NCBI GenBank assembly: GCA_003248935.1
Contig: QFQF01000009.1
Location: 12,465 to 76,464, forward strand
Reading direction: 5' to 3'
Length of the DNA: 64,000 nucleotides
Source: Sphingobium sp.
GTDB taxonomy: Bacteria > Pseudomonadota > Alphaproteobacteria > Sphingomonadales > Sphingomonadaceae
In this document: piece by piece, positions 19,558 through 36,343 of the stretch
Layout of the letters: the number at the start of each line of letters is the position of its first letter
How positions within the stretch are numbered: the first letter of the stretch is position 1
The notes under the pieces: model-generated
What the model was told of the DNA's origin: nothing
Databases searched by the model: none
The model's input: only the letters and a program-made list of their open reading frames with translations
Position numbers and translations under genes: made by a program

Positions 19558-20292
19558 TCAGGGCGTCGCGGGCGGCGCCGTTGCGGCGAGAAGCGCAGCC
19601 AAGTCGCTGGTGCCCGCCTGTCCGGTTCGCCCCTGTTCAAGCGCAAGCGCGGCAAAGCCGCTCATCTGCGCCACCGCGAAGCTGACGCCGTAGAGGTTGC
19701 GTGTCGGCGGCACGCCCTCGATCGGGCGCGGATAGCCCGATGCGAAGAATGCGGGCGTGCCGTCGATATCCGCGACGCGATACCTGCCACGCGGACAATC
19801 CCAATCCAGTTCGACACCGATCACACCGGGCAGCGCGCCCGGCCAGCAAGAGATGCCGTCGACCGACCGTGCAGCGACCAGCACTACGCCGGCGGCAGCC
19901 GCATCTTCGGCCGCACGCACGAAGGCGTCCCGATGCGCGGGGTTCTGCGAACCGAGGCTGAGGTTGACGATGTCGGCGCCCGCGTCGACGCACCAGCCGA
20001 TCGCCGCGACCAGCGCGGTCGCGGAAGCGCGCAGAGCGTCGTGAAACACCCGGACCGGCAACAGTTGCGCGCCGGAAACACGTTCCTGGATAGCGGCGGA
20101 GACGGCCGTGCCGTGGCCCAGCCGGTCGAGCGTCGCCAGCGACCCACCGTCGATCACGCCCTCACGCGAAACGGCCACGCCGTTCAGCAAGCGCGCAGCG
20201 TCAATATGCGGGTGACGCGGGTGTACACCGCTGTCGATCACGGCGATGCGCACGCCCCTGCCCGTTGTTCCGGGAAAGACCGTGCCCGTCAT
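19558..20292 (-). CDS. qhpE: Subtilisin-like leader peptidase for the QHNDH gamma subunit
   Basis: S8 triad motifs IDSG, HGT, GVSFA; last gene of the qhp cluster. Confidence 0.85.
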   Translation of the reverse strand: MTGTVFPGTTGRGVRIAVIDSGVHPRHPHIDAARLLNGVAVSREGVIDGGSLATLDRLGHGTAVSAAIQERVSGAQLLPVRVFHDALRASATALVAAIGWCVDAGADIVNLSLGSQNPAHRDAFVRAAEDAAAAGVVLVAARSVDGISCWPGALPGVIGVELDWDCPRGRYRVADIDGTPAFFASGYPRPIEGVPPTRNLYGVSFAVAQMSGFAALALEQGRTGQAGTSDLAALLAATAPPATP

Positions 20293-22004
20293 GCCTGCGG
20301 CACGGCATCGGGTCTGGAGACGGTGGCGCGTCCGTCCCGGATGTGAACCAGCATGTCGGCGCGCCCGGCAAGGGCCGGCTTGTGCGTTATGACGATCAGG
20401 GTGGCGTCGGGCATCGCGGCACGCAGGTTCGCCGCCACCAGCGCCTCCGTCTCGATGTCGAGCGCGGACGTCGGCTCGTCGAGAATGAGAACGCTGGGGT
20501 TGCGGAGCAATGCGCGCGCCAGCGCCACGCGTTGCCGTTCCCCGGCGGATAGCGCCTGCCCCCGCTCCCCGGTACGGGTGGCAAGGCCTTCAGGCAGCCG
20601 CGCGATCATCGGGCCTAGCCCGGCCGCCAGCGCCGCCGCCTCCACCCGATCCGGTGATACATCCGGCAGGCCGAAGGCGATGTTGGCGGCAATGCTGTCG
20701 TTGAACAGATAGGGTGCCTGATCGACCAGAACGATTTCCCGTCGCAGGTCATCGATCCGCAGCGTGCGGACGTCCTGCCCGTCGACGAGGATGCGGCCGT
20801 CATCGACGTCCTGATAGCGCACGAGCAGGTCAGCAAGCGTCGACTTGCCGACACCGCTGGGCCCCAGGATCGCACAGAAGCTGCCCACAGGAATCGCGAA
20901 GTCGATGTCGGTCAGCACTGCATCCCGATCATAGCGCTTGGCCACATGGTCAAAGCGCAGTTCGCCAGTCACACGGCGCAGCGGCAGGGCATCGGCCCGC
21001 TCGGTCACTTCGGCGGGTGTGTCGAACAGTTCGAAGATACGCGCCAGCGACACACGTGCGGAGGCGAGCCCGGCACTGAGGCCCATCAGTACCTGGATCG
21101 GCGCGAACAGCCGCCCCTGATAAGTCATGAAAGCAACCAGCGTGCCGATCGTCATTTCGCCCCGGATGATCATCCACCCGCCATAAAGCATCACGGCGGA
21201 CGCGGACGCGGTGAGCAGTGCGCCGGGCAGCGCACCGGTCATGAAGGAGGCAAGCTGCATCCGCAGCATCGCGCCGACGAACGCGTCGTTGCGGGCGCGG
21301 AAGCGCGCGACTTCATGGTCCCCGGCGCGCAACGCGTTGACAACGCGCATGCCCATCACGGTATCGACGAGGAAGCTGCCGAGGTCGGCGCCACGTTCCC
21401 GCATCTCCCGCGTCAGGGCCGTAAGCGCGCGCTGATAATGCAGGAAGACGGCGACGCAAACGGGGATCAGCACGACGCCGACAAGGAACAGGCGCCAGTT
21501 GAGCCAGAGCATCAGTGCGATGCTGCCGACCAGAAACAGGATGTTGCTGAGCACCGACAGCAAGCTGTCAGCGGCCGCCCGCTGCACATCGCTGACGTCG
21601 CTGTTCATCCGCGACATCAGGTCGCCGAGGCGAAAGCTGCCGAAGAAGCGGGGCGACAATGTCTGAAGATGGCGCAGCAACGCGACCCGGATATCATAGA
21701 GCATCGCCGCCGACAGCGCGACATAGCGGTAGCTCGCCAGCATATTGAGCGCGAAGCCCAGCACCGTCACCGCCAGCAGCGCGGAGGCGATCGTCACCAG
21801 CGCCTGCATATCCCGCCGGAGCAGCGCGTCGTCGATCATCAGCTTCGAAATATACGGTTGGGCGAGGTTCAGCGCGGTGGACAGCAGACTGATCGCGAGG
21901 ACGAAGACGAGCCGGGGCAGATAGGGGCGGACATAGGGCCACAGCCTGCGATAGGTGCGCCAGTCCGCCGCCGGTTGCGGTACGGAGGCAGGTGGTCCGC
22001 TCAC
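20289..22004 (-). CDS. qhpF: ABC exporter (fused TMD-NBD) for the QHNDH gamma subunit
   Basis: TM helices, GPSGVGKST, LSAGERQR, ILDE; GTG start overlaps the upstream stop codon. Confidence 0.85.
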   Translation of the reverse strand: MSGPPASVPQPAADWRTYRRLWPYVRPYLPRLVFVLAISLLSTALNLAQPYISKLMIDDALLRRDMQALVTIASALLAVTVLGFALNMLASYRYVALSAAMLYDIRVALLRHLQTLSPRFFGSFRLGDLMSRMNSDVSDVQRAAADSLLSVLSNILFLVGSIALMLWLNWRLFLVGVVLIPVCVAVFLHYQRALTALTREMRERGADLGSFLVDTVMGMRVVNALRAGDHEVARFRARNDAFVGAMLRMQLASFMTGALPGALLTASASAVMLYGGWMIIRGEMTIGTLVAFMTYQGRLFAPIQVLMGLSAGLASARVSLARIFELFDTPAEVTERADALPLRRVTGELRFDHVAKRYDRDAVLTDIDFAIPVGSFCAILGPSGVGKSTLADLLVRYQDVDDGRILVDGQDVRTLRIDDLRREIVLVDQAPYLFNDSIAANIAFGLPDVSPDRVEAAALAAGLGPMIARLPEGLATRTGERGQALSAGERQRVALARALLRNPSVLILDEPTSALDIETEALVAANLRAAMPDATLIVITHKPALAGRADMLVHIRDGRATVSRPDAVPQA

Positions 22005-22996
22005 GCCACTCCGGCCCGTTCGACGAGTTCGTAACCGCGCAACATATAGCGCGGCTCCGGTTCGGCCGCGAGACGGCGCGTGCACCAGTCGTGCCCCTGC
22101 GCAAGCGCATCATGCGCCTGTTCCCACCACGCGCCCGTGCCGCCGGAGCGATAGAATGGCGCGCAGAGCTGGAGATGGCGGCGCATCGTCGCGGTCAGCA
22201 TCGCCCCATAATGTGCACGCAACGCCTGCGCGTCGCCACCCCGCGCGATCGCGGCGATGACGGCAGCGGCAAGGATCGCCTCCCGCACCGCCTGTACTGT
22301 CCCGTCACCGCAGATCGGGTCGAAGGCGATGGCGGCGGTGCCGCAGCCGATCCAGTCGTCACCCGTAACCTGCGTCGCGATACGCGGGGAAGGATCGAAC
22401 GACTGACATGGCGTGTCACCGGCCACGATGCGCGATGCGATATCACGACTCTGTGCGAGCGCGCCGTCCAGGCTGATGCCGACGCACAGCAGCCACGCCC
22501 GCCCGGCGCCTGACGGGATCAGGAACAGCCAGCCGGCCTCCAGCGACTCGATCCGGCAGCAATCGGCGTCGTCATCGTCCCCCAGCGTTACTTCGGTCGC
22601 CAGCGCCCGCCGTTCGCCGAAATGCATGACCTCGCCATCGGGAAGCGGAGCCATGGCATGGACATGGAAACCGGGTGCGGCATCGTCCAGCGCCGGTGCG
22701 GCCGGTGCCAGCGCCGCTTCCAGCGCGGCACCGGTCACGATTGTCGCCGCATGGGGCATGGCTACCGGATCCGAATCACCCCAGCTGACGACACGCCGGT
22801 CGATCCGGCGTTCCCCCGCAAACAGGCCGGGGCGTCCGAACACGTCACGCACCAATGAGAGCGCCGCATCGCTGATCATGACGACGGGCAATGGCGGGCG
22901 GTCGACGCGGATCGCCGACGCTGCAATGCCGTGAAGGCCCAGCACATGCGCGCAACAGGATGCCGCGACGCCGCCGCCGCGTATCGTGACATTCAT
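22001..22996 (-). CDS. qhpG: FAD-dependent monooxygenase-like protein, probable QhpG
   Basis: N-terminal VTIRGGGVAA, GWLFLIP, GTAAIAFDPICGDG; position within the qhp cluster. Confidence 0.65.
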   Translation of the reverse strand: MNVTIRGGGVAASCCAHVLGLHGIAASAIRVDRPPLPVVMISDAALSLVRDVFGRPGLFAGERRIDRRVVSWGDSDPVAMPHAATIVTGAALEAALAPAAPALDDAAPGFHVHAMAPLPDGEVMHFGERRALATEVTLGDDDDADCCRIESLEAGWLFLIPSGAGRAWLLCVGISLDGALAQSRDIASRIVAGDTPCQSFDPSPRIATQVTGDDWIGCGTAAIAFDPICGDGTVQAVREAILAAAVIAAIARGGDAQALRAHYGAMLTATMRRHLQLCAPFYRSGGTGAWWEQAHDALAQGHDWCTRRLAAEPEPRYMLRGYELVERAGVA

Positions 22997-23060
22997 GCCG
23001 GGATGGTCATCGCCGCGCACGGTCGCGTCAAGCCGTCACGCTCTCGGCGCGGCGGCATCC

Positions 23061-24161
23061 TTATTGCGATACAATCAGGCCCGCCATGGTGGCGTCGTTG
23101 CCGATGTCCCACACCTTCTCCAGCTTCAGCGTCTTCGCGTCATAAACCTCGATGTCGAAGCTGGCGCCATAGATGTAGAGTTTTGCTCCGTCGCCGGACA
23201 TGCCCATCTGGAAGCGGGAGCGGCACTGGAATTCCGCCTTGTCGAGCACCTTGTTGGTGGCGAGGTCGAAACGCCAGAATTCGCACCGTTTGTTGCCGAG
23301 TGTGCCGTTGGTGACGACGGTATAGCCTTCCTTCCCGTCCGGTGTCACCTGCAGCCCCGCCATCGTCGACGCCGCCGGGCCGATCGGCACGAAAGTGAAC
23401 TGACGGGACGCGAGATCGAAGCGCGCGACACCGAAGACCTTGTTATGCACATAGGGGTCGGCCGCGTTGAACAGCGACACATATTGCCCCGGATTGCGGA
23501 TCGCCTCGACACCGCCGCCGAAGCTGACATTCTCGAACCCGGAAACCACTTCCGTCTTGGCAAGGTCGAAACGCTCGACGGCCTTCAGGTCCGACGTACC
23601 GACGACGACGACCTTGTCGCGGAAGACATACAGGAACTTGCCGTCCGGCGAGATCGCGTAGCTGGCGCGATAGGCGGCGCCGGGCGTGTCGTCCTCCGCC
23701 TCCATGTCGACGGCGCGCACCACCTTCTTCAGCTTCAGGTCGACCACCGTATATTGCGGCTTGCTGATACGGTAGCGGTCGATGTCCTTGTCAATGCGTT
23801 CGGCCACCGTGTAGAAATAGCGGCCCGCCGGGTCCGCCACGCCGCTGTAGAAACGATAGCGCGTGGTCGGCGTGTTCAGGCTGAAACTGTCCAGCACTTT
23901 GCCGGTCGCCACGTCATAGGTCTCTATGCCGCCGGTGGTGATCGTGGAGACGTAGATTTTCTTGCGATCGCTCGATTCGCGCAGGCCCGTGGGCAGGCCG
24001 GTCGCGAGCGGCACGCGCTTCGTCACCGTGCCCGTCACCTCGTCGAACAGGATCAGCACATTGGGATAGCCGCCAAGATACATGGTGCCCGCCTGAAGCT
24101 GGGCAGGCAGCAGGGCGAGACAGGCCGCAAGCGCGGCGCGCAGGACGCGGGCCGCCATCAC
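23061..24161 (-). CDS. qhpB: Quinohemoprotein amine dehydrogenase beta subunit
   Basis: Signal peptide, beta-propeller repeats (SPDGKFLY, SGDGAKLYIYG, YDAKTLK); follows qhpC. Confidence 0.85.
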   Translation of the reverse strand: MMAARVLRAALAACLALLPAQLQAGTMYLGGYPNVLILFDEVTGTVTKRVPLATGLPTGLRESSDRKKIYVSTITTGGIETYDVATGKVLDSFSLNTPTTRYRFYSGVADPAGRYFYTVAERIDKDIDRYRISKPQYTVVDLKLKKVVRAVDMEAEDDTPGAAYRASYAISPDGKFLYVFRDKVVVVGTSDLKAVERFDLAKTEVVSGFENVSFGGGVEAIRNPGQYVSLFNAADPYVHNKVFGVARFDLASRQFTFVPIGPAASTMAGLQVTPDGKEGYTVVTNGTLGNKRCEFWRFDLATNKVLDKAEFQCRSRFQMGMSGDGAKLYIYGASFDIEVYDAKTLKLEKVWDIGNDATMAGLIVSQ

Positions 24162-24490
24162 GGGAACACCAGGTCGAGGTTGCGCCAGTCTTTCGTCGCG
24201 ACCGCGCAGTTGCTGGCCCAGTCGGGCGAATAATTGACATGATCAGGCACCTGAACCGGCCAGAAGCAGGTGACGTAGCAATCGTAGATGTCGCGCTCGA
24301 CCGGCTGGCAAAGGCCCGCCGTGCCACCGCCCGCATCGACCTCCCACCCTGGCGAGAACGCCAGCGAGCAGCCCATCGGCACGTGCGGACGGGGCTGTGC
24401 CTGCTGAAGGGCGACGACATCCTCCTCCAGCATCGACGCCGCCTCGTCGATCCGGGCAGCCTTCCTGTTCAGCGGCCGAAGATGCTTCAT
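24158..24490 (-). CDS. qhpC: Quinohemoprotein amine dehydrogenase gamma subunit (CTQ precursor)
   Basis: Leader MKHLRPLNRKA; GCSLAFSPGWEVD, LCQPVERD, DCYVTCFWPVQVPD preserve the Cys-Glu/Asp crosslink and Cys-Trp spacings. Confidence 0.95.
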   Translation of the reverse strand: MKHLRPLNRKAARIDEAASMLEEDVVALQQAQPRPHVPMGCSLAFSPGWEVDAGGGTAGLCQPVERDIYDCYVTCFWPVQVPDHVNYSPDWASNCAVATKDWRNLDLVFP

Positions 24491-25938
24491 GACAACGCCT
24501 TCCTTTCAGCGAAGCGTTCGAGGAATTCGGGATTCTTGACAGCCAGTTCGCCGTAGATGCGTAGGCACCGGTCGGTCCATTCGCGGATCCAGTCGCAATA
24601 ATGCAGGTTCGCGTGGCCGGTGTCGCCATACCGTACGAACGCCTCATGATGGCAGCCGCCCGCGCAGAGCGGGCGCGCCCAGCAGCTCTGGCAATCATAT
24701 TTCGCCGCGACATGGCCGCGTTCGAGGAAATCGCTCTGCTTCTCCCGGTCGATGCCGCTGGAAATGTGGCCGAGCGTGTGCGTGTCGGCGTCGGTAAAGC
24801 GATGGCAGGGCGACAGGTCACCCGACGGGCTGACGCCGAGCAGGCCGATACCCGCGCCGCAGGGATGCGATTTGTGCACACCCTGGATCAGTTCGCTGAT
24901 CGTCTCGCTGACGTTGGAGAAGCCGTGGCTCCGCCCTTCCAGCGCGTGCTCCAGCCATTCGTCGGCCAGCGCATGGAACTGCGCGAGTACCCCCTCCATA
25001 TCGGCAGCGGAAATCGCATAGTCGCGGTCGCCCGCCGTCGTGACCGGCGCGAAGCCGACCTCGTGGAAACCCAGATCGTCCTTCAGGTGGCGGTAGATGC
25101 GCTGAACGTCGGTCACGCCCTCCGTCAGGGTCACGCGCGCGGTGATCGCGCGCGTGCGGTGACCGGCGATCAGCGCGCGCAGCCGGGGCTCCATCACCGC
25201 ATAGCTGCCCCGGCCGTTCTTGTAGACGCGACGCTTGTCCTGAAGGTCCGGCGGGCCATCCATGCTGACGGTGACGCCGATCGCATTGTCGGAGAGGAAC
25301 GCGATGATCTCCGGCGTCAGCAGCGTCGCGTTGGTCGTCAGGCTAAAGCCGACCGACTTGCCCGCCTCCTCCGCGCGTGCCGTGGCATAGGCGACGACGT
25401 CCTTCAGCAGCGGGAAGTTCATCAGCGTCTCGCCACCGAAGAAGGTGATGTGCACTCCCTTCCGCCCGGCCGACTGATCGAGCAGGAAATCGACCGACTC
25501 CCTGGCCGTGTCGATCGACATATATTTCTTCTTGCCCTGCGGCGTCGCGATCTTGTCCGCGCCGAATTCGTAGCAATAGGTGCAGGACAGGTTGCACTGA
25601 TTGGTGATGTTCAGCACCAGCGCCTGAAGCGGGAAATCCTTCGGCGGGCTGGACGGCGGCGGCGCGGGCATCGCCTCGTCCGGCACGATCACGCCCGCGA
25701 AGCGCAGTTCCCGGATGAACTCCTCCGCATCGGCGGGCGCATAGCCGTCCTCCACCAGCAGGCGGACAATCTCGCCATGGCCGAGCACTTCCCGCTCCAG
25801 CCGCGCCAGCATCGCGCGGGACGCCGCGTCGAGCTGAAAGATCGCGGCCGCCGACACAAGATAGATGAACGCGCCGTCGGCCGCGGTGAAGGCATGGAAT
25901 TCGCCGGGGCGATAGCGGTGGGCCAGCATTACGGTCAT
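24487..25938 (-). CDS. qhpD: Radical SAM/SPASM thioether-forming maturase
   Basis: CNLSCTYC, FFGGETL, SPASM cysteines (CGAG...PCHRF...CQSCWARPLCAGGC); lies between qhpA and qhpC. Confidence 0.93.
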   Translation of the reverse strand: MTVMLAHRYRPGEFHAFTAADGAFIYLVSAAAIFQLDAASRAMLARLEREVLGHGEIVRLLVEDGYAPADAEEFIRELRFAGVIVPDEAMPAPPPSSPPKDFPLQALVLNITNQCNLSCTYCYEFGADKIATPQGKKKYMSIDTARESVDFLLDQSAGRKGVHITFFGGETLMNFPLLKDVVAYATARAEEAGKSVGFSLTTNATLLTPEIIAFLSDNAIGVTVSMDGPPDLQDKRRVYKNGRGSYAVMEPRLRALIAGHRTRAITARVTLTEGVTDVQRIYRHLKDDLGFHEVGFAPVTTAGDRDYAISAADMEGVLAQFHALADEWLEHALEGRSHGFSNVSETISELIQGVHKSHPCGAGIGLLGVSPSGDLSPCHRFTDADTHTLGHISSGIDREKQSDFLERGHVAAKYDCQSCWARPLCAGGCHHEAFVRYGDTGHANLHYCDWIREWTDRCLRIYGELAVKNPEFLERFAERKALS

Positions 25939-27779
25939 TGCGAAACCTCCGGCTGGTCCCAGCGCTGATAGGCGGGGACGGCGACGACCAGATAGGCCCG
26001 TCCGGTAAGCGGCTGGCCAAACTTGTCCTTCTCCGTCCTGGCCGTGGCCACGACCCAGACGTCGCCATAATTGTTGCGGCCGAAACGGCGGGCGGGGTTG
26101 GGACCGTCGGCGGCAGGCGTGAACAGCGCCCCGGCGTTCAGCGAACCGACGAAATCCTTGTCGTCATCATCGAAGACGGCCATGAATTCCTGGATACTCC
26201 AGTCGGCATCGACGATACCGATCTTCACGTCGTCGGCCGTGTTCGGCTTGCCGTCGGGACCGTTTTCGTAACCGATCGCCTCGAACTGACCGTAGCCCTT
26301 GGGATGCTTGTCTCCACCAAGGCGGGCGAGGCTGGTGTCCGGCGAGACCTTCAGATAGTCGATCTTCCGGTAGACTGGCAGCACCTGCGCCAACGTGGCG
26401 TCGCGGATGCCGACATCATGGCGCCCGGCCACGGCGTCCGGCGCGATATCGGCCAACACGACCACCTCGTCCGGGGTCGCCGACACGATCCTGCGTACGC
26501 TCACCCCTTCGCCCAGATTGACCTCGCCAGGCTTCAGGTCGGCGGGCAGGTTGATGCCGGTGATGCGGACCTGCTGGTCCTTCTCCCCGGCCTTCAGCAT
26601 GACCGGCGCGACGCCAGCGACCGCCGGTTCGGCACCCGCGCGGGTCAGCGTCACGTCGAAGCCGAATTCATGATACTCGCCCCAGAACCATCGCCCCTGC
26701 GCGCTCTTCTGGTCCGGCGCGAACCATAATGTCTCACGCATTTCCTGATTGGGATCGTCGGGCTGCGTGGCCGCAGCCGGCCCCTTCGACCTGCCACGCC
26801 AGGAATAGCCGCCATAGACGATGCCAGTCCCCGTGCGGGTCAGCGTTTCGCCGGTGGCGAGCGAGCGCAATGACGTGCTGGTGACGAACTCGTCGGCGGT
26901 CTTGCCGGGGCGAACCGTCAGCGTGCCCGCATAGTCGCCATGGCCCGGCAGATGCGCGGAGACCACCCAGGCACCGGCCAGATAGGGGGAACGGATACGC
27001 GGCCGCCAGCTGCCCCATTCCATCGTGTGGAGCGGCGCGGCCTTCTGCATATATTCCAGTGCGACCTGACCGTTGGTGACGGGCGGTGTGCCTGGCGGCG
27101 GCGGCGCGCCCGGCGCGGGATCGGCAGGACGGCGATATTGCGCCTCCGCCTGCGAATACAGCGCGACGTGCATGTCCTGGAGCAGTTTCCATTCCGTCTT
27201 CGACCGGCGCCAGGACAACGGCTGGGCGAAGGCGTGGCATGACGCGCAGGCCTGCCGTACGGTGTCGTTGGGAATGGCCGCCTCGTCCACGATGCGCCGT
27301 TCGGGCAGGTACATGACCGGCTTTGCCTCTTCCGGCGACAGGCCGTGCCAGGTTGCCAGATAACGGACCACGGCGCGCGATTCCTCCGGCGTGATATCGA
27401 GGCCGTTCAGCTTTACCATCCGCTTGATCGCCTGGGACCAGCCCTCCGGCGTGGTACGCAACCAGGAGATACGGGACAGATTACCCTTCGCATCAGGCGC
27501 GTGACAGGAACCGCATTTCTCCTTCGTCAGCGCATCGGTGACGGGGATGCCATCCTCCGTCTCCTTGAGCGCCGCATCGGCCGCCGGGGGCGTGCTGCCC
27601 TGACCGCTGACCTGCGCCACAACGACGGTCGCCGAGCAGAGGCCAAGCAGGACGAGGCGACGGACCGAGGAGCCGCAAGCCGCGAGAAGAGCCGGTATCC
27701 GGCGCGGGAGGAGACGTTCGGCTTGGCCCGGACGCTGTGGACCGGCGGGCGCGATATCATCGGCGGCTGGGATCGTCAT
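25935..27779 (-). CDS. qhpA: Quinohemoprotein amine dehydrogenase alpha subunit (diheme)
   Basis: CGSCH and CASCH, SRISWLRTTPEGW, GPDGKPNTADD, DGPNPAR; start uncertain. Confidence 0.92.
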   Translation of the reverse strand: MTIPAADDIAPAGPQRPGQAERLLPRRIPALLAACGSSVRRLVLLGLCSATVVVAQVSGQGSTPPAADAALKETEDGIPVTDALTKEKCGSCHAPDAKGNLSRISWLRTTPEGWSQAIKRMVKLNGLDITPEESRAVVRYLATWHGLSPEEAKPVMYLPERRIVDEAAIPNDTVRQACASCHAFAQPLSWRRSKTEWKLLQDMHVALYSQAEAQYRRPADPAPGAPPPPGTPPVTNGQVALEYMQKAAPLHTMEWGSWRPRIRSPYLAGAWVVSAHLPGHGDYAGTLTVRPGKTADEFVTSTSLRSLATGETLTRTGTGIVYGGYSWRGRSKGPAAATQPDDPNQEMRETLWFAPDQKSAQGRWFWGEYHEFGFDVTLTRAGAEPAVAGVAPVMLKAGEKDQQVRITGINLPADLKPGEVNLGEGVSVRRIVSATPDEVVVLADIAPDAVAGRHDVGIRDATLAQVLPVYRKIDYLKVSPDTSLARLGGDKHPKGYGQFEAIGYENGPDGKPNTADDVKIGIVDADWSIQEFMAVFDDDDKDFVGSLNAGALFTPAADGPNPARRFGRNNYGDVWVVATARTEKDKFGQPLTGRAYLVVAVPAYQRWDQPEVSQ

Positions 27780-27846
27780 GCCCGGAAATGTCCCCCTGTT
27801 CGGCGGCGCATCCGGCTGTTGCCGGCATGGCGCCCGAGTCCGAAGG

Positions 27847-27876
27847 TTGGACAAATGTCAAGAATTGGTCAAGCGG
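27847..27876 (-). promoter_or_regulatory. qhpA promoter/operator (shared motif)
   Basis: cgcTTGAC-caattc-TTGAC-attt-GTCCA on the minus strand; 27/30 identical to 31480-31509. Confidence 0.75.
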
Positions 27877-27934: not shown

Positions 27935-28450
27935 TCAGCCGGGCGGTGAAGGATAGAGCGCGCGCAACGAAACCGGCGCATGACATTTGCGGATCGCCGC
28001 CTCGACATGGCGGGCGCGCTCCGCCTTCAAGGACGCGGAAGACAGCGCAAAGCGCCGCTCGCGCGCGACCTCCTCGGCGGAGAAAGGCACGGCATCAGGC
28101 CGCGTGCTGGCACCTCCCAGGCCGAAGACGACGAAGTTGACGAGATCGGCGAGTTGCTGATTGTCGGTGATCCGGCTGTGCGCGACGTTGGGCAGGCGGA
28201 TGAGGTATGCGCGCGCCTGTGGCGTGCACATGAAATAGCCGACCCGGTCGCGCAGTTCGGGCAGCTGGGCCGGTGCCGAACGCCCCTCGACCCCGTGGCA
28301 GCCCCCGCAATTCTCGACATAGTCCGACCGTGCGAGGACGGGATCGGTGATCGCGGCGGGAAGAACGGATTTGCCCGGTTGCGTCGCCGCGCCCGCGCCG
28401 ACGGCAAGCCCGGCCATGCCGAGCAGGGCAAGCCGCCCGCCCCGCCTCAT
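27935..28450 (-). CDS. Periplasmic monoheme cytochrome c
   Basis: Signal peptide, CGGCH, YLIRLPNV; directly after mauA. Confidence 0.8.
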   Translation of the reverse strand: MRRGGRLALLGMAGLAVGAGAATQPGKSVLPAAITDPVLARSDYVENCGGCHGVEGRSAPAQLPELRDRVGYFMCTPQARAYLIRLPNVAHSRITDNQQLADLVNFVVFGLGGASTRPDAVPFSAEEVARERRFALSSASLKAERARHVEAAIRKCHAPVSLRALYPSPPG

Positions 28451-28480: not shown

Positions 28481-29026
28481 TCAGCCCGCCGCGCCCACCA
28501 GCACCGCAGTCGAGCAATGATATTCCATGCTGGACGTGCCGAAGCACCAGATCACGTCATTGTTGAGCTGGGGCGTATAGAGCTGGGTTTCGCGGTCGGT
28601 ATTGTCGCAGAAGCACTGGCCGCAGGTCGGCTTCCCGCAGCAGTCGCGATAGGCGATCAGATAGGCCTTGCCATCGTCGGGGTTGATGCAGGTGCCGACC
28701 CAGGACACCGGGGACGGCTCCGCGCCCGGCGGGCAGCTGTGGATACCACCGCCGCAACAGGTGCAAAGGGCGCCGTCGATCGCACAATAGCGCCAGTAAT
28801 CGCACTGCGTATCGTCCTTCGTCTGCGCGTTGCGGGCGAAGGCGGTCTTCGCCTCAGGCGATCGGTCGGGCTTGGCGGCGTCGGCGCGGCTGACGGGCAG
28901 CAGCGGGAAGACGGGGGCGGCGACGAGCGCCGCACCCAGCCGCGAGAGGATGCCACGCCGTGACGTGCGTCCGGCAAATTTGCGGAGGAGCGTTTCCCCG
29001 ATGGCGTCCGCGTCGAAATGCTTCAT
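28481..29026 (-). CDS. mauA: TTQ amine dehydrogenase light chain
   Basis: Tat motif SRRGIL; CDYWRYCAIDG and NDVIWCFG contain the two TTQ tryptophans; YRDCCGK; Cys-rich. Confidence 0.95.
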   Translation of the reverse strand: MKHFDADAIGETLLRKFAGRTSRRGILSRLGAALVAAPVFPLLPVSRADAAKPDRSPEAKTAFARNAQTKDDTQCDYWRYCAIDGALCTCCGGGIHSCPPGAEPSPVSWVGTCINPDDGKAYLIAYRDCCGKPTCGQCFCDNTDRETQLYTPQLNNDVIWCFGTSSMEYHCSTAVLVGAAG

Positions 29027-29062: not shown

Positions 29063-29665
29063 TCAGGCCGCCTCCACCTTCAACGCGGCGATATAGTCCT
29101 GCACCGACCGGATGCCCATTTCATGGGCGACGACCAGGCTCTCCAGATGTTCACGGCTGTTCACCAGCCCCTTCGACAGGACTGTGCCCTCCGCATCGAG
29201 AAGGACGGCGAACGGCAGCTTCGCAACGCCGAATGCCTGCCCAACCTCCGGCCCGTTGACGAAGACATAGCCCTCCAGCCCCTGCTGCGCGACCAGCGCC
29301 TTCTGCGCGGCGACATCGTCGTCCCCGACGAAGGTCAGCGTCACGCGCTCGTCGCGGGCGAAGGATTTGGCCATCGGGATCATCGCCTTGCACAGCGGAC
29401 ACTGGGCGGACACGAACATCAGCAGACGGAGCGCGGAATGCCGGGCGGGACCGCCCACCATCGCCGTCACTCCCTCCAGCGTGCGCGTCGCGACCGGCGC
29501 GGAGGCATCGCCGACGGCGATACCGCCAGCCGTCGTCAGCGCGCCGGCGGGCGCGACACGCATGTGCAGCACGCCGACCTGCCGCGCCAACGCCAGCAGC
29601 GCGACACCCATCGCCAGGATGACGATCCACGAGATGATCTGGGATGCGATCAGGGCAGTCATCAT
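29063..29665 (-). CDS. mauD: Amine dehydrogenase accessory thioredoxin-like protein
   Basis: LARQVGVLHMRVAPAGAL, CPLC, KGLVNSREHLESL. Confidence 0.93.
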   Translation of the reverse strand: MMTALIASQIISWIVILAMGVALLALARQVGVLHMRVAPAGALTTAGGIAVGDASAPVATRTLEGVTAMVGGPARHSALRLLMFVSAQCPLCKAMIPMAKSFARDERVTLTFVGDDDVAAQKALVAQQGLEGYVFVNGPEVGQAFGVAKLPFAVLLDAEGTVLSKGLVNSREHLESLVVAHEMGIRSVQDYIAALKVEAA

Positions 29666-29671: not shown

Positions 29672-30226
29672 TTATCTCCGGTAGGCGGCCTTCGATGAAC
29701 GCGAGAGCGCGTCGATCGCGTTGAAGACGAGATAGCAGAGGAACAGAGCAAGGCCGCCCGCCGCCGCAGCCGCTATCGCGCCGCCGGACACGGGCGGTGA
29801 CACGGGCAGCGCGAGCAGCAGCAGGGCTGCGATGCACAGGTTGCGCGCGACCAGCGGCCAGCCGAGCGGCTGGCGCAGACTGGAAAGGCCGCAACCGCAA
29901 TCGATATGACCACGGCCGCGCCGCACGTTGATCGCCATTCCGGCGGCAAAGGCGAGGAGCAGGACGATGGCGATGATCTGCGGCAACGGACGCAGGCCCG
30001 CGATCAACAGTCCGCCAACGGCCGTCTCGATATAGGGAAGCGCGAATGCGACGGGCGCGACGAGCGGCCGGGGCAGGATACGGTAATTGGCAACCACCCC
30101 CTCCAGCAGCATGCGATGGCGGAACTTCGCCACTCCGGACAACAGCAGGATCAGCCCAATGCCGATCGACACGGCGAGCCCGATGATGCCCAGGCCGAGT
30201 GCAATGCTGAGGGGCGCCGTCTCCAT
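29672..30226 (-). CDS. mauE: MauE/DoxX membrane protein
   Basis: TM helices, YRILP, INVRRGRGHIDCGCG, VARN. Confidence 0.9.
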   Translation of the reverse strand: METAPLSIALGLGIIGLAVSIGIGLILLLSGVAKFRHRMLLEGVVANYRILPRPLVAPVAFALPYIETAVGGLLIAGLRPLPQIIAIVLLLAFAAGMAINVRRGRGHIDCGCGLSSLRQPLGWPLVARNLCIAALLLLALPVSPPVSGGAIAAAAAGGLALFLCYLVFNAIDALSRSSKAAYRR

Positions 30227-30228: not shown

Positions 30229-31392
30229 TCAATGCGGGTTCACCACGGTGATCACGCCCGCGCCCGCATTCTCGATCGCATGCTTTTCCTCCCACGTCGC
30301 AACGTCGAGGATGATGCCCTTCTTCTTTTCGTCATTGGCGAAGATCAGCGGCTTGTCGGTCTGCGTCACTTCCAGATTGTTCATCGGCTCCTTCAGCGGC
30401 ACGCGCTTCACCACCTTCTGCGTGGCGAGGTCGACGTCCCAGATTTCGGTGCCCGACGCCTTGTGCGACCAGTATTCGCCCATGTGCATCAGCACGAACA
30501 GATGGCCGGATGGACGATGCAACGCCATCGGCTGGCGCCCGCCCGGCAGCCAGTTGATGTCCAGCGGCTTCGTATCGCCGGAACGGATGCCGGCCGCCGT
30601 CTGGATGGAGAATGGTTGCGACACCGAAGGCTCCGCGCTGATCTTCGCCGTATAGATCTGGCCGGTATAGGTCAGGAACACCGCCTCCTTCTTGACGGCG
30701 TCATAGGCATAATTGTCGAAGATCGGATCGTCGGTGGCCGAGAAGAAGGGCTGCGTGTGCGTGATCTGCGGCTTGCTGCCCGCCATCCGCACCGTCGCGA
30801 GCGACCCGTCCGAACACAAGGCGGAGAAACCAAGACCCGGATTGGGCATCAGACTCGCGCAGCCGGGCAACTCGACATTCTTGTAGAACTTCTTCTTCGC
30901 CAGATCGACGACATTCACGGAGGACGCCGGGTCGAGATTGTAGACGAATCCCCATTTGCCATCGTCGCTGACCACGAAATTGTTCTTGCGCGTGCCGATA
31001 AGGATTCGGCCGGGAATCGCGATCTCGGTCACCAGCTTCAACTCGCTTGTGTCATAGACCGACACCATGTCCTGGCGCGTGCCGCGATCCCCCTTCGACC
31101 AGATGGTTTCGGCGACATAGTAATATCTGCCGGCGGGATCGATCGCCATGTCGGCAAGCCGGCGCGTTTCCACCATGCCCTTCATCTTGCCGCTTTCGCC
31201 GTCGAAGATGGTCGTGCCGCCCATGTCCCAGCCGCCATCGACATAGAACCAGCCGGGCTTGGGCGGGTCGATCGTCATGACGTCGGACGTTTCGACCTGA
31301 AGTTCGGTTTCCGCGTTCGTCGGAACGGCGGTGCCCGCGATCGCGGCGAGCATCACCCCGATGGCCGCGGCTCTAGAGCGCATCCTGATCAT
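30229..31392 (-). CDS. mauB: TTQ amine dehydrogenase heavy chain
   Basis: Signal peptide, RGTRQDMVSVYD, PGCASL, ALCSDG, WLPGGRQ, LMHMGEYWSHK. Confidence 0.9.
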   Translation of the reverse strand: MIRMRSRAAAIGVMLAAIAGTAVPTNAETELQVETSDVMTIDPPKPGWFYVDGGWDMGGTTIFDGESGKMKGMVETRRLADMAIDPAGRYYYVAETIWSKGDRGTRQDMVSVYDTSELKLVTEIAIPGRILIGTRKNNFVVSDDGKWGFVYNLDPASSVNVVDLAKKKFYKNVELPGCASLMPNPGLGFSALCSDGSLATVRMAGSKPQITHTQPFFSATDDPIFDNYAYDAVKKEAVFLTYTGQIYTAKISAEPSVSQPFSIQTAAGIRSGDTKPLDINWLPGGRQPMALHRPSGHLFVLMHMGEYWSHKASGTEIWDVDLATQKVVKRVPLKEPMNNLEVTQTDKPLIFANDEKKKGIILDVATWEEKHAIENAGAGVITVVNPH

Positions 31393-31479
31393 ATGGCCGG
31401 TCCCCCTTCGATCGACATGCGTGCACGGTGCGGCACCGGTGCGTCGTCCGCCGCGTCCTGCCGCTGCATCGCAACAAGA

Positions 31480-31509
31480 TTTGACAGATGTCCAGAATTG
31501 GTCAAGCGG
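31480..31509 (-). promoter_or_regulatory. mauB promoter/operator (shared motif)
   Basis: cgcTTGAC-caattc-TGGAC-atct-GTCAA on the minus strand. Confidence 0.75.
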
Positions 31510-31552
31510 CGAAAACCGCGTTGGAAGCGATTTTTTTGCGCCGCACCTTGCC

Positions 31553-32725
31553 TCACGCTGCCACCCCCTGCCCGGCCCCGGCTCCGGTCGCGACCGGAAC
31601 CTGCCGCCGCGCGAACAGCAGGGCCGCCATGGCCGCGACCAGCACCGACAGCGCGCCCGCCTCCAGTCCCGGCCGTCCAGCCGCACCGGCCATGACGGCT
31701 CCCAGTACGGGGCCCGCGATCATACCCAGCGGATGGGTACAGGCGACGAATCGGCGGAACAGCGGATCGCCGCTCGCTGCGGTCGCCGCTCCGGAGCAGC
31801 GGATGATGATAGCGGTCGACCCGATGTTGAGCAGCAGGACCGCGCCGATAAAGGGTGTGCTGCCGCCAAGCGGGATCAGCACCAGCGGCGAGAGCAGGCA
31901 CAGGCCCGCGAGCAGGCCGGTGAGCGGCAACGGAACGAGGGGCCGTTCGCGCATGACGGCGATCGCGGTCAGCGCACCGACCACCGACCCCAGCGCGACA
32001 CCGAAGCCGATCACCTCCTCGTCCAGTCCCTCTCCGGCCGCCAGCGCACCGGTAAAACTCCACACAAGCATCGTTGCGCAAATGAAGGCGAAGGCGGCGG
32101 CGGCCAGCGCCCAGGCGGCCGGCGGCACAGATGTCCCGCCGGGTGCCGGAAACGGCGGTGCGCCGGACAGGATGCGCGCCCATGGTCGCGCCGTCAGTGC
32201 CAGCCCGGCAATGACGAGCGGCCCCGCAGTCAGCGCAACCAGCGCCGCACGGGGACTTACAGCATCCGAGACAAACGGCAGGAGAAGCGCCACGGCGGTC
32301 GAGAGCAGGAGTTGCGCAAGGAATACTGCCGCATAGGCTGTGGTCGGGCGTCGCGCTGCCGCCTCGCTCATCGCATCGGTGTAGATCACGCCCATCGCAA
32401 GGCCGAACAGGCCACGTATCAGCAGGAGCGCCGCAAAATCACCGAACAGGGCAGTCGCGATGCCACACAGGAATGCGAAGCCGGCGGCCATCGGCACCAT
32501 CCGCCGAGCCGGCAGCGCATGGCGGTAGCGCCAGACGGCGAGTGCACCCAGCGCCATGCCGCCCTGGGTCGCGCCGACGATCCAGCCGTGCCGCAGGGGA
32601 TCAAGGCCATGCGCCGCCGACAGGATGGTCAGGAAAACCGGATCGATGCCGGGCTGAAGGCAACCGATGGCTGCGGTGGCGATCGTGGTTGAACCCGCGA
32701 ACGCACGATGGGGCCCTGCCTGCAT
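31553..32725 (-). CDS. MFS-like membrane transporter
   Basis: About 12 hydrophobic segments; LLIRGLFGLAMG motif. Confidence 0.75.
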   Translation of the reverse strand: MQAGPHRAFAGSTTIATAAIGCLQPGIDPVFLTILSAAHGLDPLRHGWIVGATQGGMALGALAVWRYRHALPARRMVPMAAGFAFLCGIATALFGDFAALLLIRGLFGLAMGVIYTDAMSEAAARRPTTAYAAVFLAQLLLSTAVALLLPFVSDAVSPRAALVALTAGPLVIAGLALTARPWARILSGAPPFPAPGGTSVPPAAWALAAAAFAFICATMLVWSFTGALAAGEGLDEEVIGFGVALGSVVGALTAIAVMRERPLVPLPLTGLLAGLCLLSPLVLIPLGGSTPFIGAVLLLNIGSTAIIIRCSGAATAASGDPLFRRFVACTHPLGMIAGPVLGAVMAGAAGRPGLEAGALSVLVAAMAALLFARRQVPVATGAGAGQGVAA

Positions 32726-32802: not shown

Positions 32803-33462
32803 TCAGGCCACCGCTTCGGGCAGGGCGGCAATGTCGCGCGCGCTCGCCGTCTTGGCAAGCTCTACCAGCGATTTGACCGCCAGCATCTTGAACGCGTCCA
32901 TCTTGTCCGACCAGGGCTTGCCGTAGCCCAGAAAGGCCGTCGCCCCTTCCATCGAGGCACTGATATAGAGCGCCAGCGTGTGCACCTCGTCCGGCGTCAG
33001 CGCCGGGTTGAGCTGCGCCACATATTCGCCGATCACGTCGTGCACCCTGCGGTAGAAGATCTGCACGCGCTCGGCGACGAAGTCATCATGGTTGGCAAGC
33101 GCCCACAGTTCCGTGAACAGATGCGTGGTGCGCTTGGTACGGATGTCGTCGAGGCACAGGATGATAACGAGGCGAAGGCGCTCCTCGGCCGACAGGCCGG
33201 GCCTGCGCACCCGCTCCTCCAGCAAGCGCCCATAGGATTCGATCAGCTCGTCGAGCAGCACCTGGATCAGCATTTCCTTGCGCGGGAAATGATAGCTGAC
33301 ATTGCCTACCTTCATGTCGGCACGGGCGGCGATGCGGCGAATGGTGAACGCTGCCGCCCCCTCGTCGATCAGCACGGACAACGCCGCCTTCAGGATCGCG
33401 TCGACGGTTTCTGTCCCACGGGCGTAAATGCCGGGCTTTGGAGGAGAAGTCATGACATTCAT
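32803..33462 (-). CDS. TetR/AcrR family regulator
   Basis: ILKAALSVLIDEG...FTIRRIAARADMKVGNVSYHFPRKE HTH. Confidence 0.92.
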   Translation of the reverse strand: MNVMTSPPKPGIYARGTETVDAILKAALSVLIDEGAAAFTIRRIAARADMKVGNVSYHFPRKEMLIQVLLDELIESYGRLLEERVRRPGLSAEERLRLVIILCLDDIRTKRTTHLFTELWALANHDDFVAERVQIFYRRVHDVIGEYVAQLNPALTPDEVHTLALYISASMEGATAFLGYGKPWSDKMDAFKMLAVKSLVELAKTASARDIAALPEAVA

Positions 33463-33540
33463 ATCGATAATCCCGGTCGTGCCGCTCTCCCCCTCTCGGC
33501 TGCCCTTAACGTCCTCCGGCGCGTGGCTCAACCCCGGGTG

Positions 33541-33568
33541 CGCTTGACGAAAGTTTGAAGCCTGTCCA
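33541..33568 (+). promoter_or_regulatory. Mo-oxidoreductase promoter/operator (third copy of the shared motif)
   Basis: cgcTTGAC-gaaagt-TTGAA-gcct-GTCCA; same spacing as the qhpA and mauB sites; lies in the tetR divergent region. Confidence 0.6.
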
Positions 33569-33692
33569 GTATTGATGCAACAGCGTGGCAGCGGAAAGTC
33601 ATTCCGATGCGGATCGATGCCCCCAACCGGCGGATGTTGCGGGCAACCGCGATACGGCGGTAGGATCGTTGCATGACGCAGGGGGACAGGCA

Positions 33693-34154
33693 TTGGCGGT
33701 GACATTCGAGGTGAACGGCACGGCACGGACCGTCGAGGCCGATCCGGACAAGCCGCTGCTCTGGATATTGCGCGAAGACCTGAAGCTGCCCGGCACCAAA
33801 TTCGGCTGCGGCGCGGGTCTCTGCGGCGCGTGCACCGTCATCATGGACGGGGAGGCCATCCGCTCCTGCCAGACGCCCGTCGGCACGATCGCCGGGAAGG
33901 CGGTGATGACCATCGAGCATGTCGCGAGCACCGGTCCGGGCAAGCGGCTGGCCGATGCCTGGGTCGCGCTGGACGTGCCGCAATGCGGCTATTGCCAAGC
34001 CGGGCAGATCATGTCCGCGACCGCGCTTCTCACCAGCAACCCCAAGCCGCAAGTGGCTGACATCGACGCGGCGATGAGTGGCAATATCTGTCGCTGCGCC
34101 ACCTATCTGCGTATCCGTGCTGCGATCACGCAGGCGGCGGGAGCCGAGGCATGA
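33693..34154 (+). CDS. (2Fe-2S)-binding small subunit of a xanthine oxidase-family (IorA-like) oxidoreductase
   Basis: [30 protein letters not shown]. Confidence 0.92.
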
Positions 34155-36343
34155 ACGCCATTTCCGTCATCGATCGCCGCGCTTTCCTCTCCGTGTCGCT
34201 GGCGGGCGGCGCGGCGCTGCTGTTCGACGCGCGCATGCCGCTGGCTGCGCAAGCCCCGGGCGGCACAGCCGCCCTCAATGCCTTCGTTCGCATCGGTGCC
34301 GACAACATCATCACTATCGGCGCCAAGAATCCGGAGATCGGACAGGGCATCCGTACCATGCTGCCGATGCTGATCGCAGAGGAACTGGATGCGGACTGGG
34401 CGCAGGTGCGGATCGAACAGACGCTGGCCGATGACAAGATCTACGGCCCGCAGTCCGCAGGCGGGAGCCGCAGCACGCCGGTCAACTGGCTGCCGATGCG
34501 GCAGGTCGGCGCGGCAGCGCGGCAGATGATCCTGATGGCGGCAGCGGGCGAATGGGGCGTGGACGCCGGGGCGCTGTCGACCGATCGCGGCCATGTGGTG
34601 CTGACGGGAACGGACCGGCGTGCGCCCTATGCCACCTTCGCCGTGCGGGCCGCGCAGATCGCGCCACCCGACCTTTCCACCGTCGCGCTGAAGGACGCCA
34701 AGACCTTCCGCATCATCGGCACGTCGGTGCCGGGCGTCGACACGCCTGCAATCACGCAGGGCAAGCCCCTGTTCGGGATCGATACCGACCTTCCCGGCAT
34801 GCTCCACGCCGCGATCGAGATTTGTCCGGTGTTCGGCGGAACCATTGCCAGCCTGGACGACAGCGCAACCCGCGCTGTCAAGGGCGTGATCGCAGTGACG
34901 CCGCTCAACAGCGGCATCGTCGCCGAGGGACAGCAGAATGCTGTCGCCGTGATCGCCGACAGTTGGTGGACGGCGGATCAGGCGCGGCAGAAGCTGGTCG
35001 TGCAATGGGAAACGCAGGCACAGCAGGGTCATTCGACCGCAGGCTATGAGGCGAAGGCAGGCGAACTGCTGAAAGCGCCGCCGCAGCACGACCTGCTGCG
35101 CAAGGGGGATGCGCAAGGCGCCCTCGCCCGGGCGAAGCGTGTCGTCACGGCGCGCTATGATTATCCGTTCCTTGCGCACGCGACGCTGGAACCGCAGAAC
35201 TGCACGGCGCGCTTTGCCGACGGCAAGGTCGAGATATGGGCGCCGAGCCAGGCGCCCGCCGGTGGACGCAAGCTCGTCGCCCAGGCGCTCGGCATCGCTC
35301 CCGAAGCGATCACCATCCATATGACGCGGATCGGCGGCGGCTTCGGCCGGAGGCTGATGAACGACTACATGGTACAGGCGGCGCTGATCGCGAAGGCTGT
35401 GCCGGGCCGTCCGGTGAAGCTGATCTACAGCCGTCCGGACGACATCAGGCATGATTATTACCGCCCGGCCGGCTGGCATCAGCTGACCGCCGGTCTTGGT
35501 GCGAACGGCGAGATCGTCGCGATCACCGACCATTTCGTCAGCTTCGGCGCCGATGGAAAGGCCGTGACCGCCGCCGAGATGAACCCGCTGGAATTCCCCG
35601 CCCAGATCGTGCCCGACGTCCATTATGGCGCGACATACATGCCGACGTTCATGCCCACCGGCTGGCTCCGTGCGCCGACGTCCAACGCGATGGCCTTCGC
35701 CTTTCAGGGATTCCTTGACGAGGTGGCGGAGGCGGCCGGGCTTGACCTGCCCGAACTGATGCGACGCACGCTTGGCGAGGCGCGGTTGCTGCCGCCGCCC
35801 GAACGCGGCGCGCCGTTCCACACCGGACGCGCCCGGGCCGTGATCGACGCCGTATGCGCCGATGCAGGATGGACGGGCGGTGCGGCATCGCGCAAGCGAG
35901 GAAAAGCCAAGGGGCGCGGCTTCGGCTTCTATTTCAGCCATGCCGGCTATTTCGCGGAGGTGGTCGACATCAGCATCGTCGACAAGACGACGGTCCGTGT
36001 CGACAAGGTATGGGTCGCGGGCGATGTCGGCGCCCATGTGATCAACCCGCTCAACGCGCTGCATCAGGCGCAGGGTTCGGTCATCGACGGCATCGCCCAG
36101 GCGCTGGCCGGGCAGAAAGTCGAGCTGGAGGGCGGCGCGGTCGTGCAGGAGAATTTCCACGACTTCCCGCTGCTGCGGATAGAAAGCGCCCCGCCGGAGG
36201 TCGCGGTCCGTTTCCTGACGCCGGACTTCCCGCCGACCGGCATGGGCGAGCCCGCCTTGCCACCGGTGATCCCGGCGCTGGCCCATGCGATCTACAACGC
36301 CACCGGCAAGCGGCTGCGCAGCCTGCCGCTGAGCCTCGGCTAG
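34151..36343 (+). CDS. Molybdopterin-binding large subunit (IorB-like), Tat-exported, probable aldehyde oxidoreductase
   Basis: DRRAFL Tat motif, [35 protein letters not shown]. Confidence 0.9.

Follow-up and report, generated by a model that had tools for sequence, protein, structure and literature searches.

Amine dehydrogenases built on tryptophan tryptophylquinone (TTQ) and on cysteine tryptophylquinone (CTQ) are known as separate systems with separate regulators. A locus of Sphingobium sp. in which genes for both lie back to back (contig QFQF01000009.1 of assembly GCA_003248935.1, positions 12,465 to 76,464; this 64,000-nucleotide stretch is the window, whose numbering is used here) raises the question of whether the two belong to one system. 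The assembly amounts to 3.64 Mb and is 85% complete, a completeness that every assembly-wide negative below carries. Read on the minus strand, the order is tetR, a major facilitator superfamily (MFS) gene, mauB-E-D-A, a gene for a mono-haem cytochrome (cytB) and qhpA-D-C-B-G-F-E, all intact; iorA and then iorB, the latter with a Tat motif, run divergently on the plus strand, and GC content is even across the locus. This gene list had been proposed in the initial annotation, and profile searches found each named gene in its place and orientation. Judged from sequence, it is fairly probable that the locus would be a TetR-repressed regulon, in which a TTQ dehydrogenase lacking MauG and a CTQ dehydrogenase work in parallel on one imported amine class, with a molybdenum enzyme carrying the product on to the acid in the periplasm.

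The evidence for a common switch is a 34-bp element found before mauB (31475..31508, minus) and before qhpA (27842..27875, minus), the two copies being 88% identical, with a weaker copy before iorA (33541..33574, plus) in the gap shared with the divergent tetR. Its consensus is TTGAC(C/G), 17 bp and (C/A)A-NNN-T, and the spacer holds a palindrome, T(T/G)GAC-N4-GTC(C/A)A, where a repressor would block sigma-70. Specifically, the predicted promoter of the mau unit reads TTGACC, 17 bp with the palindrome and AAATCT, that of the qhp unit TTGACC, 17 bp with the palindrome and CAACCT, and that of iorAB TTGACG, 17 bp and CAGTAT. A matrix built on 33 mauB-upstream sites from other genomes only, the own site being left out, was run over both strands of the assembly and gave 54, 52 and 31 bits at 31508, 27875 and 33541, each hit facing its gene. 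No other site exceeded 16 bits, and eight column-shuffled matrices peaked at 9–14 bits. Relatives were scored at 18 bits or more with the own site added to the training set. Such sites were present before mauB in 34 of 36 cases, before qhpA in 36 of 82, before iorA in 9 of 30, before a further cytochrome gene of relatives, cytA, in 10 of 19 and in the gap before tetR in 21 of 46. The control regions had none at this threshold (qhpE 0/79, qhpD 0/85, qhpG 0/83, mauD 0/31, cytB 0/31, MFS 0/31, iorB 0/27), and neither had the regions before urtA (0/19) and ureohydrolase genes (0/16).

Concerning the owner of the operator, we infer the BetI-like TetR regulator (32803..33462, minus; PF00440, PF13977) encoded in the locus. 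In all five genomes that have a qhpA site and no tetR nearby, a TetR orthologue (67–69%) is encoded elsewhere, and none of five genomes without a qhpA site has that orthologue. A palindrome over each predicted promoter, confined to the locus and tracking tetR, is the pattern of a TetR regulon, and one repressor likely switches the mau, qhp and iorAB units together. The co-oriented array had been described from the outset and its orientation holds, but it does not form a single operon: separate promoters, all bearing the same palindrome, are predicted for mauB, qhpA and iorA. The same three predicted sites speak against the clusters responding to unrelated signals, one of the two outcomes that had been named as fatal to a joint system.

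The other was that the juxtaposition might be unique to this assembly, and a conservation search found the arrangement again in the genomes of relatives. In the host genus (134 genomes, own included), with orthologous mauA called at 179 bits or more over positions 1–112 and one frameshifted copy added, 49 genomes had mauA of the own clade, 48 had qhpC, 47 had both, three had one only and 84 had neither. Both systems thus occur in 47 of the 50 genomes holding either, and qhpC was found in one of nine genomes with only other mauA types. Within 22 kb of each other lie 19 of the 47 pairs: six back to back, two with qhp upstream, seven convergent at about 11 kb and four at 17–21 kb. From the qhp side, QhpC relatives of any type numbered about 542 stretches in the scanned part of GTDB; the best 80 were analysed with flanks of up to 10 kb (65 at full length, and some from the same genomes as the other locus set). 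These 80 loci belong to sphingomonads, Phenylobacterium, acetic acid bacteria, Solimonas and Acidobacteria, the named near homologues coming from Sphingobium and Sphingomonas. A mauB orthologue occurs in 20 of them and a tetR orthologue in 29. Pairwise distances of MauB, QhpA, QhpB and TetR agree with each other (Spearman 0.66–0.85, 32 locus pairs, 0 of 500 permutations). The pairing of TTQ and CTQ enzymes is real and conserved.

The TTQ enzyme is encoded, all on the minus strand, by mauB or aauB (heavy chain, 30229..31392; PF06433), mauE (membrane protein, 29672..30226; PF07291), mauD (thioredoxin-like maturation protein, 29063..29665; TIGR02661, E-value 2e-46, below cut-off) and mauA or aauA (light chain with Tat leader, 28481..29026; PF02975), and the heavy beta-propeller chain, MauE and MauD that mark the TTQ superfamily are all present. 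Aligned to 3C75_L and 2AGL_D, MauA retains both TTQ tryptophans, both active-site aspartates and the cysteine pattern, and W43, W94 and D62 are invariant across 49 rows; MauBA is a predicted TTQ amine dehydrogenase. The mature core of MauA scores 150 bits against aromatic amine dehydrogenase (AADH) and 137 against methylamine dehydrogenase (MADH). MauB is about equidistant from the two (136 and 132 bits, respectively) and, in a tree of 53 heavy chains, forms a clade of its own (support 100/100); the tree has no Alcaligenes faecalis row and bears a long-branch warning for branches outside that clade. The aromatic substrate pocket of the AADH heavy chain is made by a Phe-Asn loop and a Phe/Leu loop. 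The AADH motif PTAFNG aligns with ETRRLA in MauB, whose first loop is shorter, and this pocket is not recognisable; the Arg-Arg-Leu opposite the AADH Ala-Phe-Asn is kept in 9 of the 11 relatives shown.

The cluster is unbroken and contains no mauF, mauG, mauJ or amicyanin gene, which gives the TTQ half an aau-type, MauG-less layout. Queries with MauF, MauJ and amicyanin of Paracoccus denitrificans PD1222 found no match in the assembly, and the MauG query met only a distant MbnH-like gene on another contig, the one gene of the cytochrome c peroxidase (CCP)/MauG family in the assembly (256 bits as MbnH-like and 157 as MauG, both below cut-off). On these comparisons the TTQ enzyme is assigned to an uncharacterised MauG-less clade. 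A second MauG-less TTQ clade with the same gene order was seen in nine loci (L025, L026, L028, L029, L032, L034, L037, L039 and L040). These loci also encode two cytochromes in tandem, a TonB receptor and an aldehyde dehydrogenase, and in many cases a related TetR; L025 and L029 have a similar operator. An acetic acid bacterium with a CTQ enzyme of the present type carries three mauA copies on a 23-kb stretch (G853:C36:249369-272242), and in another genome (G010, L023:9512-10050) mauA is frameshifted while the remainder of both clusters is apparently intact.

The CTQ enzyme is a quinohaemoprotein amine dehydrogenase (QHNDH), and its complete set of genes lies on the minus strand: qhpA (di-haem alpha subunit with two CxxCH, 25935..27779; TIGR03908, above cut-off), qhpD (radical SAM thioether cross-linker, 24487..25938; TIGR03906, 662 bits, above cut-off), qhpC (gamma subunit and CTQ precursor, 24158..24490; NF037958), qhpB (beta subunit, 23061..24158), qhpG (22001..22996), qhpF (ABC exporter, 20289..22004; PF00664, PF00005, and its place within the qhp run) and qhpE (leader-cleaving subtilisin-like protease, 19558..20292; NF049966, above cut-off). 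Di-haem alpha subunit, QhpD, QhpE and QhpF, by which the family is recognised, are thus all there. In comparison with 1JMX and 1JJU, QhpC keeps all cross-link and CTQ residues (C7/E16, C27/D33, C41/D49 and C37/W43), and Asp12 of the gamma subunit is replaced by Ser, DPGWE reading SPGWE. SPGWE was found in 12 of 12 host-genus copies examined, and an automatic pattern match gave Ser at position 12 in 77 of the best 80 loci and Phe in the other three. QhpB is highly divergent and lies far below the cut-off of TIGR03907 (63 against 223 bits), which is still its best match, with an E-value of 5e-5 to 1JJU_B. QhpG likewise scores 59 bits against a cut-off of 240 with its family still the best match, and its model has 7CTQ as top fold match (E-value 1e-18, TM 0.76). 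It has 331 aa, its 55 orthologues 328–354 aa and the solved enzymes 429–432 aa. The published domain limits of QhpG are 1–344 (catalytic) and 349–429 (winged-helix), and the enzyme dihydroxylates a peptidyl Trp (PMC7876137). By its length and fold match the present QhpG consists of the catalytic domain only and is predicted to be without the C-terminal winged-helix domain. Ser12 and the short QhpG mark a putative QHNDH subfamily and are no ground for exclusion; the enzyme is placed, on sequence, in an uncharacterised clade.

How TTQ would be made in such a cluster turns on cytB (27935..28450, minus), which had been proposed at first as a substitute for amicyanin or azurin. That role is doubtful: cytB has no conserved sixth haem ligand, it and MauG exclude each other, and the genome has a pseudoazurin gene. 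The protein (171 aa, one CxxCH) shares the fold of the electron carrier Thermus c552 (Z 10.1, rmsd 2.6, 110 aligned residues), and thus has the CxxCH and c552-type fold of a class I carrier but neither Met nor His as sixth ligand. In place of the Met of the neighbouring cytA family, cytB has Leu or Val (column 62: Val 75, Leu 56, Ala 2, Ile 1), and no second His or Met is conserved in the 134 rows. Of 49 mauA-positive genomes tested, 48 have the gene no more than about 1.3 kb from mauA, and all 12 mauA-negative genomes lack it; the lone mauA-positive genome without it has mauF, mauJ and a MauG-family gene in the cluster. MauG above the family cut-off was found in 0 of 56 genomes. Among 30 plasmid-borne mauA clusters, 15 have cytB and no strong MauG match, whereas in the other 15 cytB is missing and MauG or a peroxidase encoded in the cluster is present; 13 of the latter 15 come from Paracoccus, so that independent MauG cases are few. 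Since cytB has a single CxxCH, only 171 aa and no PF03150 match (PF03150 matched nothing in the window), it does not have the di-haem CCP/MauG fold and could replace MauG only as a non-homologous stand-in. Foldseek gave no match with E <0.001 for cytB, and a wider search, which excludes nothing, had no outstanding MauG- or CCP-like row. Weighing these data, we lean slightly towards cytB helping to build TTQ as a maturase.

It is quite possible, if less so, that cytB serves the TTQ enzyme as its own electron acceptor, the sixth haem ligand being unusual or exchangeable. The carrier fold agrees with this, as does the position of cytB in the place of amicyanin in mau clusters. In addition, MauG clusters mostly carry amicyanin too, so that the two exclusivities of cytB, with MauG and with amicyanin, are confounded; but cytB is also missing from two MauG-type clusters (Indioceanicola and G642) whose fetched stretch has no amicyanin gene, and against an acceptor role stand the missing sixth ligand and the pseudoazurin as well. 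The carrier role could be taken instead by cytA, since many MauG-less clusters have a Met-bearing cytA next to or fused with cytB. The cytA-cytB pairs and fusions recall, by analogy, one open and one closed haem in MauG (PMC11951088). In P0121, P0123–P0128, P0131, P0150, P0157, P0235 and P0249, a cytA domain with Met and a cytB domain without it are naturally fused into one di-haem protein. cytA itself was not found in the own assembly.

Whether the two dehydrogenases perform the same step or successive ones can be judged from genomes with one of them. A family sample of 300 genomes contained two with both back to back, six with MauA at 82% or more and no QhpC match, two with QhpC of the own type and no MauA match, and one more with QhpC and a partial MauA match only. 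mauA was found in none of ten further QHNDH genomes (five Novosphingobium with tetR, MFS and receptor, four Phenylobacterium with the receptor, and one Solimonas), and some mauA was present in three of five and five of five genomes of two other sets. TetR and the TonB receptor accompany the TTQ enzyme without QhpC (G353 and G297) and QHNDH without mauA (G349 and the five Novosphingobium); likewise, tetR and receptor are kept in the TTQ-only clusters L139 and L140 and in the QHNDH-only cluster L143. Because either enzyme on its own is found with this regulator and importer, overlapping routes for one substrate class fit better than two obligatory steps, and the dehydrogenases likely act in parallel and not in series. 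From the earlier proposal of a single pipeline, a periplasmic module from amine over aldehyde to acid under one signal is retained as a prediction, but an obligate sequence of two enzymes is not, each of them also occurring alone with the same TetR and/or receptor.

A serial scheme, in which a diamine is attacked at its first end by one dehydrogenase, turned into an omega-amino acid by IorAB and oxidised at its second end by the other dehydrogenase, giving a fully periplasmic route from diamine to diacid, is rather improbable. It would explain the near-complete co-occurrence even where the genes are unlinked (47 of 50), and both active sites look remodelled (Asp12 to Ser in gamma, Arg-Arg-Leu against Ala-Phe-Asn in MauB), either of which changes could suit a charged distal group. 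The single occurrences given above (mauA in 0 of 10 QHNDH genomes, QhpC in 0 of 6 with MauA at 82% or more) argue against it, and two MauB orthologues do without the Arg pair.

Less probable still, and in our view quite unlikely, is that two independent amine modules merely travel together on a mobile island, each with its own inducing signal. Four or more gene orders exist, qhp is joined in many Sphingobium to a ureohydrolase-urea operon without the operator, and in each of the four trees (MauB, QhpA, QhpB and TetR) the own copy groups with those of Sphingomonas, which suggests transfer of the module. On the other side, the mau and qhp units share one operator here, it recurs in 36 of 82 qhpA regions, and it is kept in trans where tetR lies elsewhere; moreover, in the control of canonical mau and qhp on the same plasmid, the two lay more than 100 kb apart in all three records. 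That the MauG-less TTQ enzyme borrows QhpG or the haems of QhpA for its cofactor is scarcely credible: the assembly has no MauG but a single MbnH-like gene of the CCP/MauG family, and QhpG does dihydroxylate a peptidyl Trp, but most of the MauG-less TTQ clusters examined come from genomes without QHNDH, and QhpG is cytoplasmic whereas TTQ forms after export (PMC7876137). A strict dependence of TTQ on qhp genes was rejected, six family genomes having MauA at 82% or more without a QhpC match.

Parallel dehydrogenases would hand their aldehydes to IorAB. iorA (33693..34154, plus; PF00111, PF01799) encodes the 2Fe-2S subunit and is taken to start at a TTG behind GGGGGA, the listed open reading frame (ORF) running from 33585; iorB (34151..36343, plus; PF02738, PF20256) encodes the molybdopterin subunit with the Tat motif RRAFL. 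The closest solved relative of IorB is the large subunit of a Gluconobacter aldehyde dehydrogenase (8GY3_C, E-value 2e-66, full-length). An RRxF[LMI] motif was present in 22 of 22 iorB orthologues examined, and an iorB orthologue occurs in 25 of the 80 QhpC loci, often directly before qhpA. Molybdenum-binding domains, 2Fe-2S subunit and Tat signal being all in place, IorAB is a predicted periplasmic aldehyde dehydrogenase.

The module had been limited at 19558, but it reaches on to a divergent pair at 14045–19193, a TonB-dependent receptor (16479..19193, plus; PF00593, PF07715) and a tetratricopeptide repeat (TPR)-sulfotransferase (14045..16153, minus; PF13469 and TPR). The receptor, likely an outer-membrane importer of the substrate, has an orthologue (45% or more) in 40 of the 80 QhpC loci and adjoins the mau cluster with 72–87% identity in 9 of 11 host-genus genomes of the initial set. 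The TPR-sulfotransferase has an orthologue in 39 of the 80 and also stands beside TTQ-only clusters. The MFS transporter (31553..32725, minus, behind tetR), recognised by features and structure since its Pfam E-value is only 0.04, has one in 24. Behind the receptor an unannotated gene (19209..19553, plus) encodes a mini c-type cytochrome of about 70 mature residues, with signal peptide, CLMCH, an AMP motif and a C-terminal CxxxCxxC in CWRRCTTCW; copies 61–79% identical lie behind the receptor in eight other loci, and a feature search led to clusters of small cytochrome-like proteins. A cytochrome c2-type protein (13675..14055, plus; PF00034, CxxCH and the Met motif PGTRM), put forward earlier as a possible acceptor, is a fair candidate by its Met motif and its presence at the same position with 73–78% identity in 4 of the 80 QhpC loci, but it has no operator and is loosely attached; a homologue with 49–53% identity stands beside two sister-clade TTQ clusters. 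Clustering of ORFs in the flanks, a noisy approach with antisense frames, found no conserved neighbour beyond those named. Elsewhere in the window, a signal-peptide amidase gene (11458–13202, minus) is split by a frameshift near 12440–12470 into halves covering PF01425 positions 2–141 and 139–445, perhaps an assembly error, and no orthologue was seen in related loci. A second pair of TPR-sulfotransferase and TonB receptor, 35% and 27% identical to the first, lies at 43114–47266 in a stretch of lower GC.

Hints as to the substrate come from neighbouring genes in relatives. Secreted ureohydrolases of the arginase family, below agmatinase cut-offs, lie beside qhp in 16 of the 80 loci, and in most of these they are accompanied by genes for a urea ABC transporter and for HupE/UreJ. 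Downstream of two Sphingobium TTQ clusters lie a permease gene and a gene resembling agmatinase, the latter above the TIGR01230 cut-off in one case (L147), and a sister-clade TTQ cluster (L142:12408-17988) lies amid gabT-, gabD- and gabP-like genes and iorAB. Ureohydrolase, agmatinase and gab neighbours thus indicate agmatine, putrescine and gamma-aminobutyrate. We tentatively predict aliphatic di- or polyamines, e.g., putrescine or agmatine, as the substrate class, an assignment that falls just short of an even chance. In four loci (L022:1935-6242, L018:13437-17887, L077 and L144) two to three tandem secreted ureohydrolases head the qhp operon, followed by the urea ABC genes and the HupE/UreJ gene. 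One paralogue is without metal-ligand motifs (QFNAHADA or QFDAHADA, SFDMSVLDP), and an active/inactive heteromer may form. The L142 cluster shares an amidohydrolase-like gene with L141.

Several results weigh against a single regulon for one imported amine class. The polyamine hint comes from relatives only, since the own assembly gave no arginase-family gene, no agmatinase and no gabP-like match; the gab context is a single locus, and three more IorAB-like pairs exist in the assembly. No site of 18 bits or more was found upstream of the receptor (0/48) or of the TPR-sulfotransferase (0/49), a generic sigma-70 scan listed no promoter at the three sites of the locus, and their -10 boxes fit only a relaxed A2/T6 pattern. 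A regulon uniform across all relatives was rejected, as 0 of 17 ureohydrolase-type qhp loci have an 18-bit site in the stretch fetched. In 28 of the 47 host-genus genomes with both systems there is no linkage inside 22 kb (11 pairs lie more than 100 kb apart, 17 on different contigs). Finally, because kin share genes, co-occurrence and agreement between trees speak for co-inheritance and not for function.

With these points counted in, the TetR-repressed regulon with parallel dehydrogenases would work as follows. The TonB receptor would carry the amine over the outer membrane; the amine or its product would enter through the MFS carrier and free TetR from the palindromes between -35 and -10 of mauB, qhpA and iorA/tetR. 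Both dehydrogenases would convert the amine to aldehyde and ammonia, the established chemistry of both families, and IorAB, going by homology, would oxidise the aldehyde to the acid. Electrons might pass to cytochromes of the His/Met type (the c2 at 13675, or cytA in relatives) or to pseudoazurin, and the Met-less cytB would be slightly more likely to build TTQ than to carry electrons.

A much wider statement, that this is a widespread periplasmic polyamine/agmatine regulon of two new tryptophylquinone clades under one repressor, with cytB (and cytA) as a non-homologous replacement of MauG and the TTQ maturase of AADH-type enzymes, is speculative and, taken whole, unlikely. If true, TTQ formation free of MauG could be studied at the same locus as CTQ formation by a QhpG that lacks the winged-helix domain. 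In a major genus of soil and water, about one third of the genomes have both enzymes, often linked, and in the linked form the one operator predicts a single inducer. The locus thus raises the questions of what the two clades oxidise, why two cofactors serve one job and how TTQ arises without MauG. For the last, the split between cytB and MauG (15/15 of 30 plasmid clusters; 48/1 of 49 genomes) names a candidate. No paper was found that describes TTQ and CTQ clusters lying side by side or under common control, or the orf-2 cytochrome of aau, and as most subscription journals were outside the coverage, absence from print is not shown. The parts are of known families; their joint, operator-sharing regulon with receptor and molybdenum enzyme is new as far as the literature was covered.

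Among known systems, the TTQ half is closest in layout to the AADH cluster of A. faecalis (structures PDB 2AGL and 2H3X), which comprises aauBEDA with the orf-2 cytochrome, in the order B-E-D-A and without mauF or mauG. As in that layout, B-E-D-A is followed here by a mono-haem cytochrome with no mauF or mauG, and the light-chain core is nearer to AADH. The heavy chain, however, is equally distant from AADH and MADH, belongs to its own clade and has other channel residues, and the present cluster has TetR control and ties to QHNDH, IorAB and the TonB receptor. With the mau cluster of P. denitrificans PD1222 (NC_008688) it shares homologues of mauB, E, D and A, the TTQ Trp pair, both Asp and the Cys pattern, but mauF, amicyanin, mauJ, mauG, mauM, mauN and the LysR-type mauR are missing here and cytB is found instead. 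Compared to the qhp genes of P. denitrificans and Pseudomonas putida (1JJU, 1JMX, 7CTQ; PMC7876137), the qhpA-G set is complete, and the gamma cross-link and CTQ residues and the QhpG fold are retained; here, in contrast, gamma has Asp12 changed to Ser and Trp42 to Phe, beta is barely recognisable, QhpG is without the winged-helix domain, the order is ADCBGFE, and a TetR operator stands in place of a qhpR-type gene, none being seen in the cluster. IorAB resembles the membrane-bound aldehyde dehydrogenase of Gluconobacter oxydans (8GY3) and IorAB-type molybdenum hydroxylases in its Tat-signal molybdenum subunit and 2Fe-2S subunit. It differs from the G. oxydans enzyme in that no gene for a multihaem subunit adjoins it here, while in some relatives the mono-haem cytA heads a cytA-iorA-iorB run.

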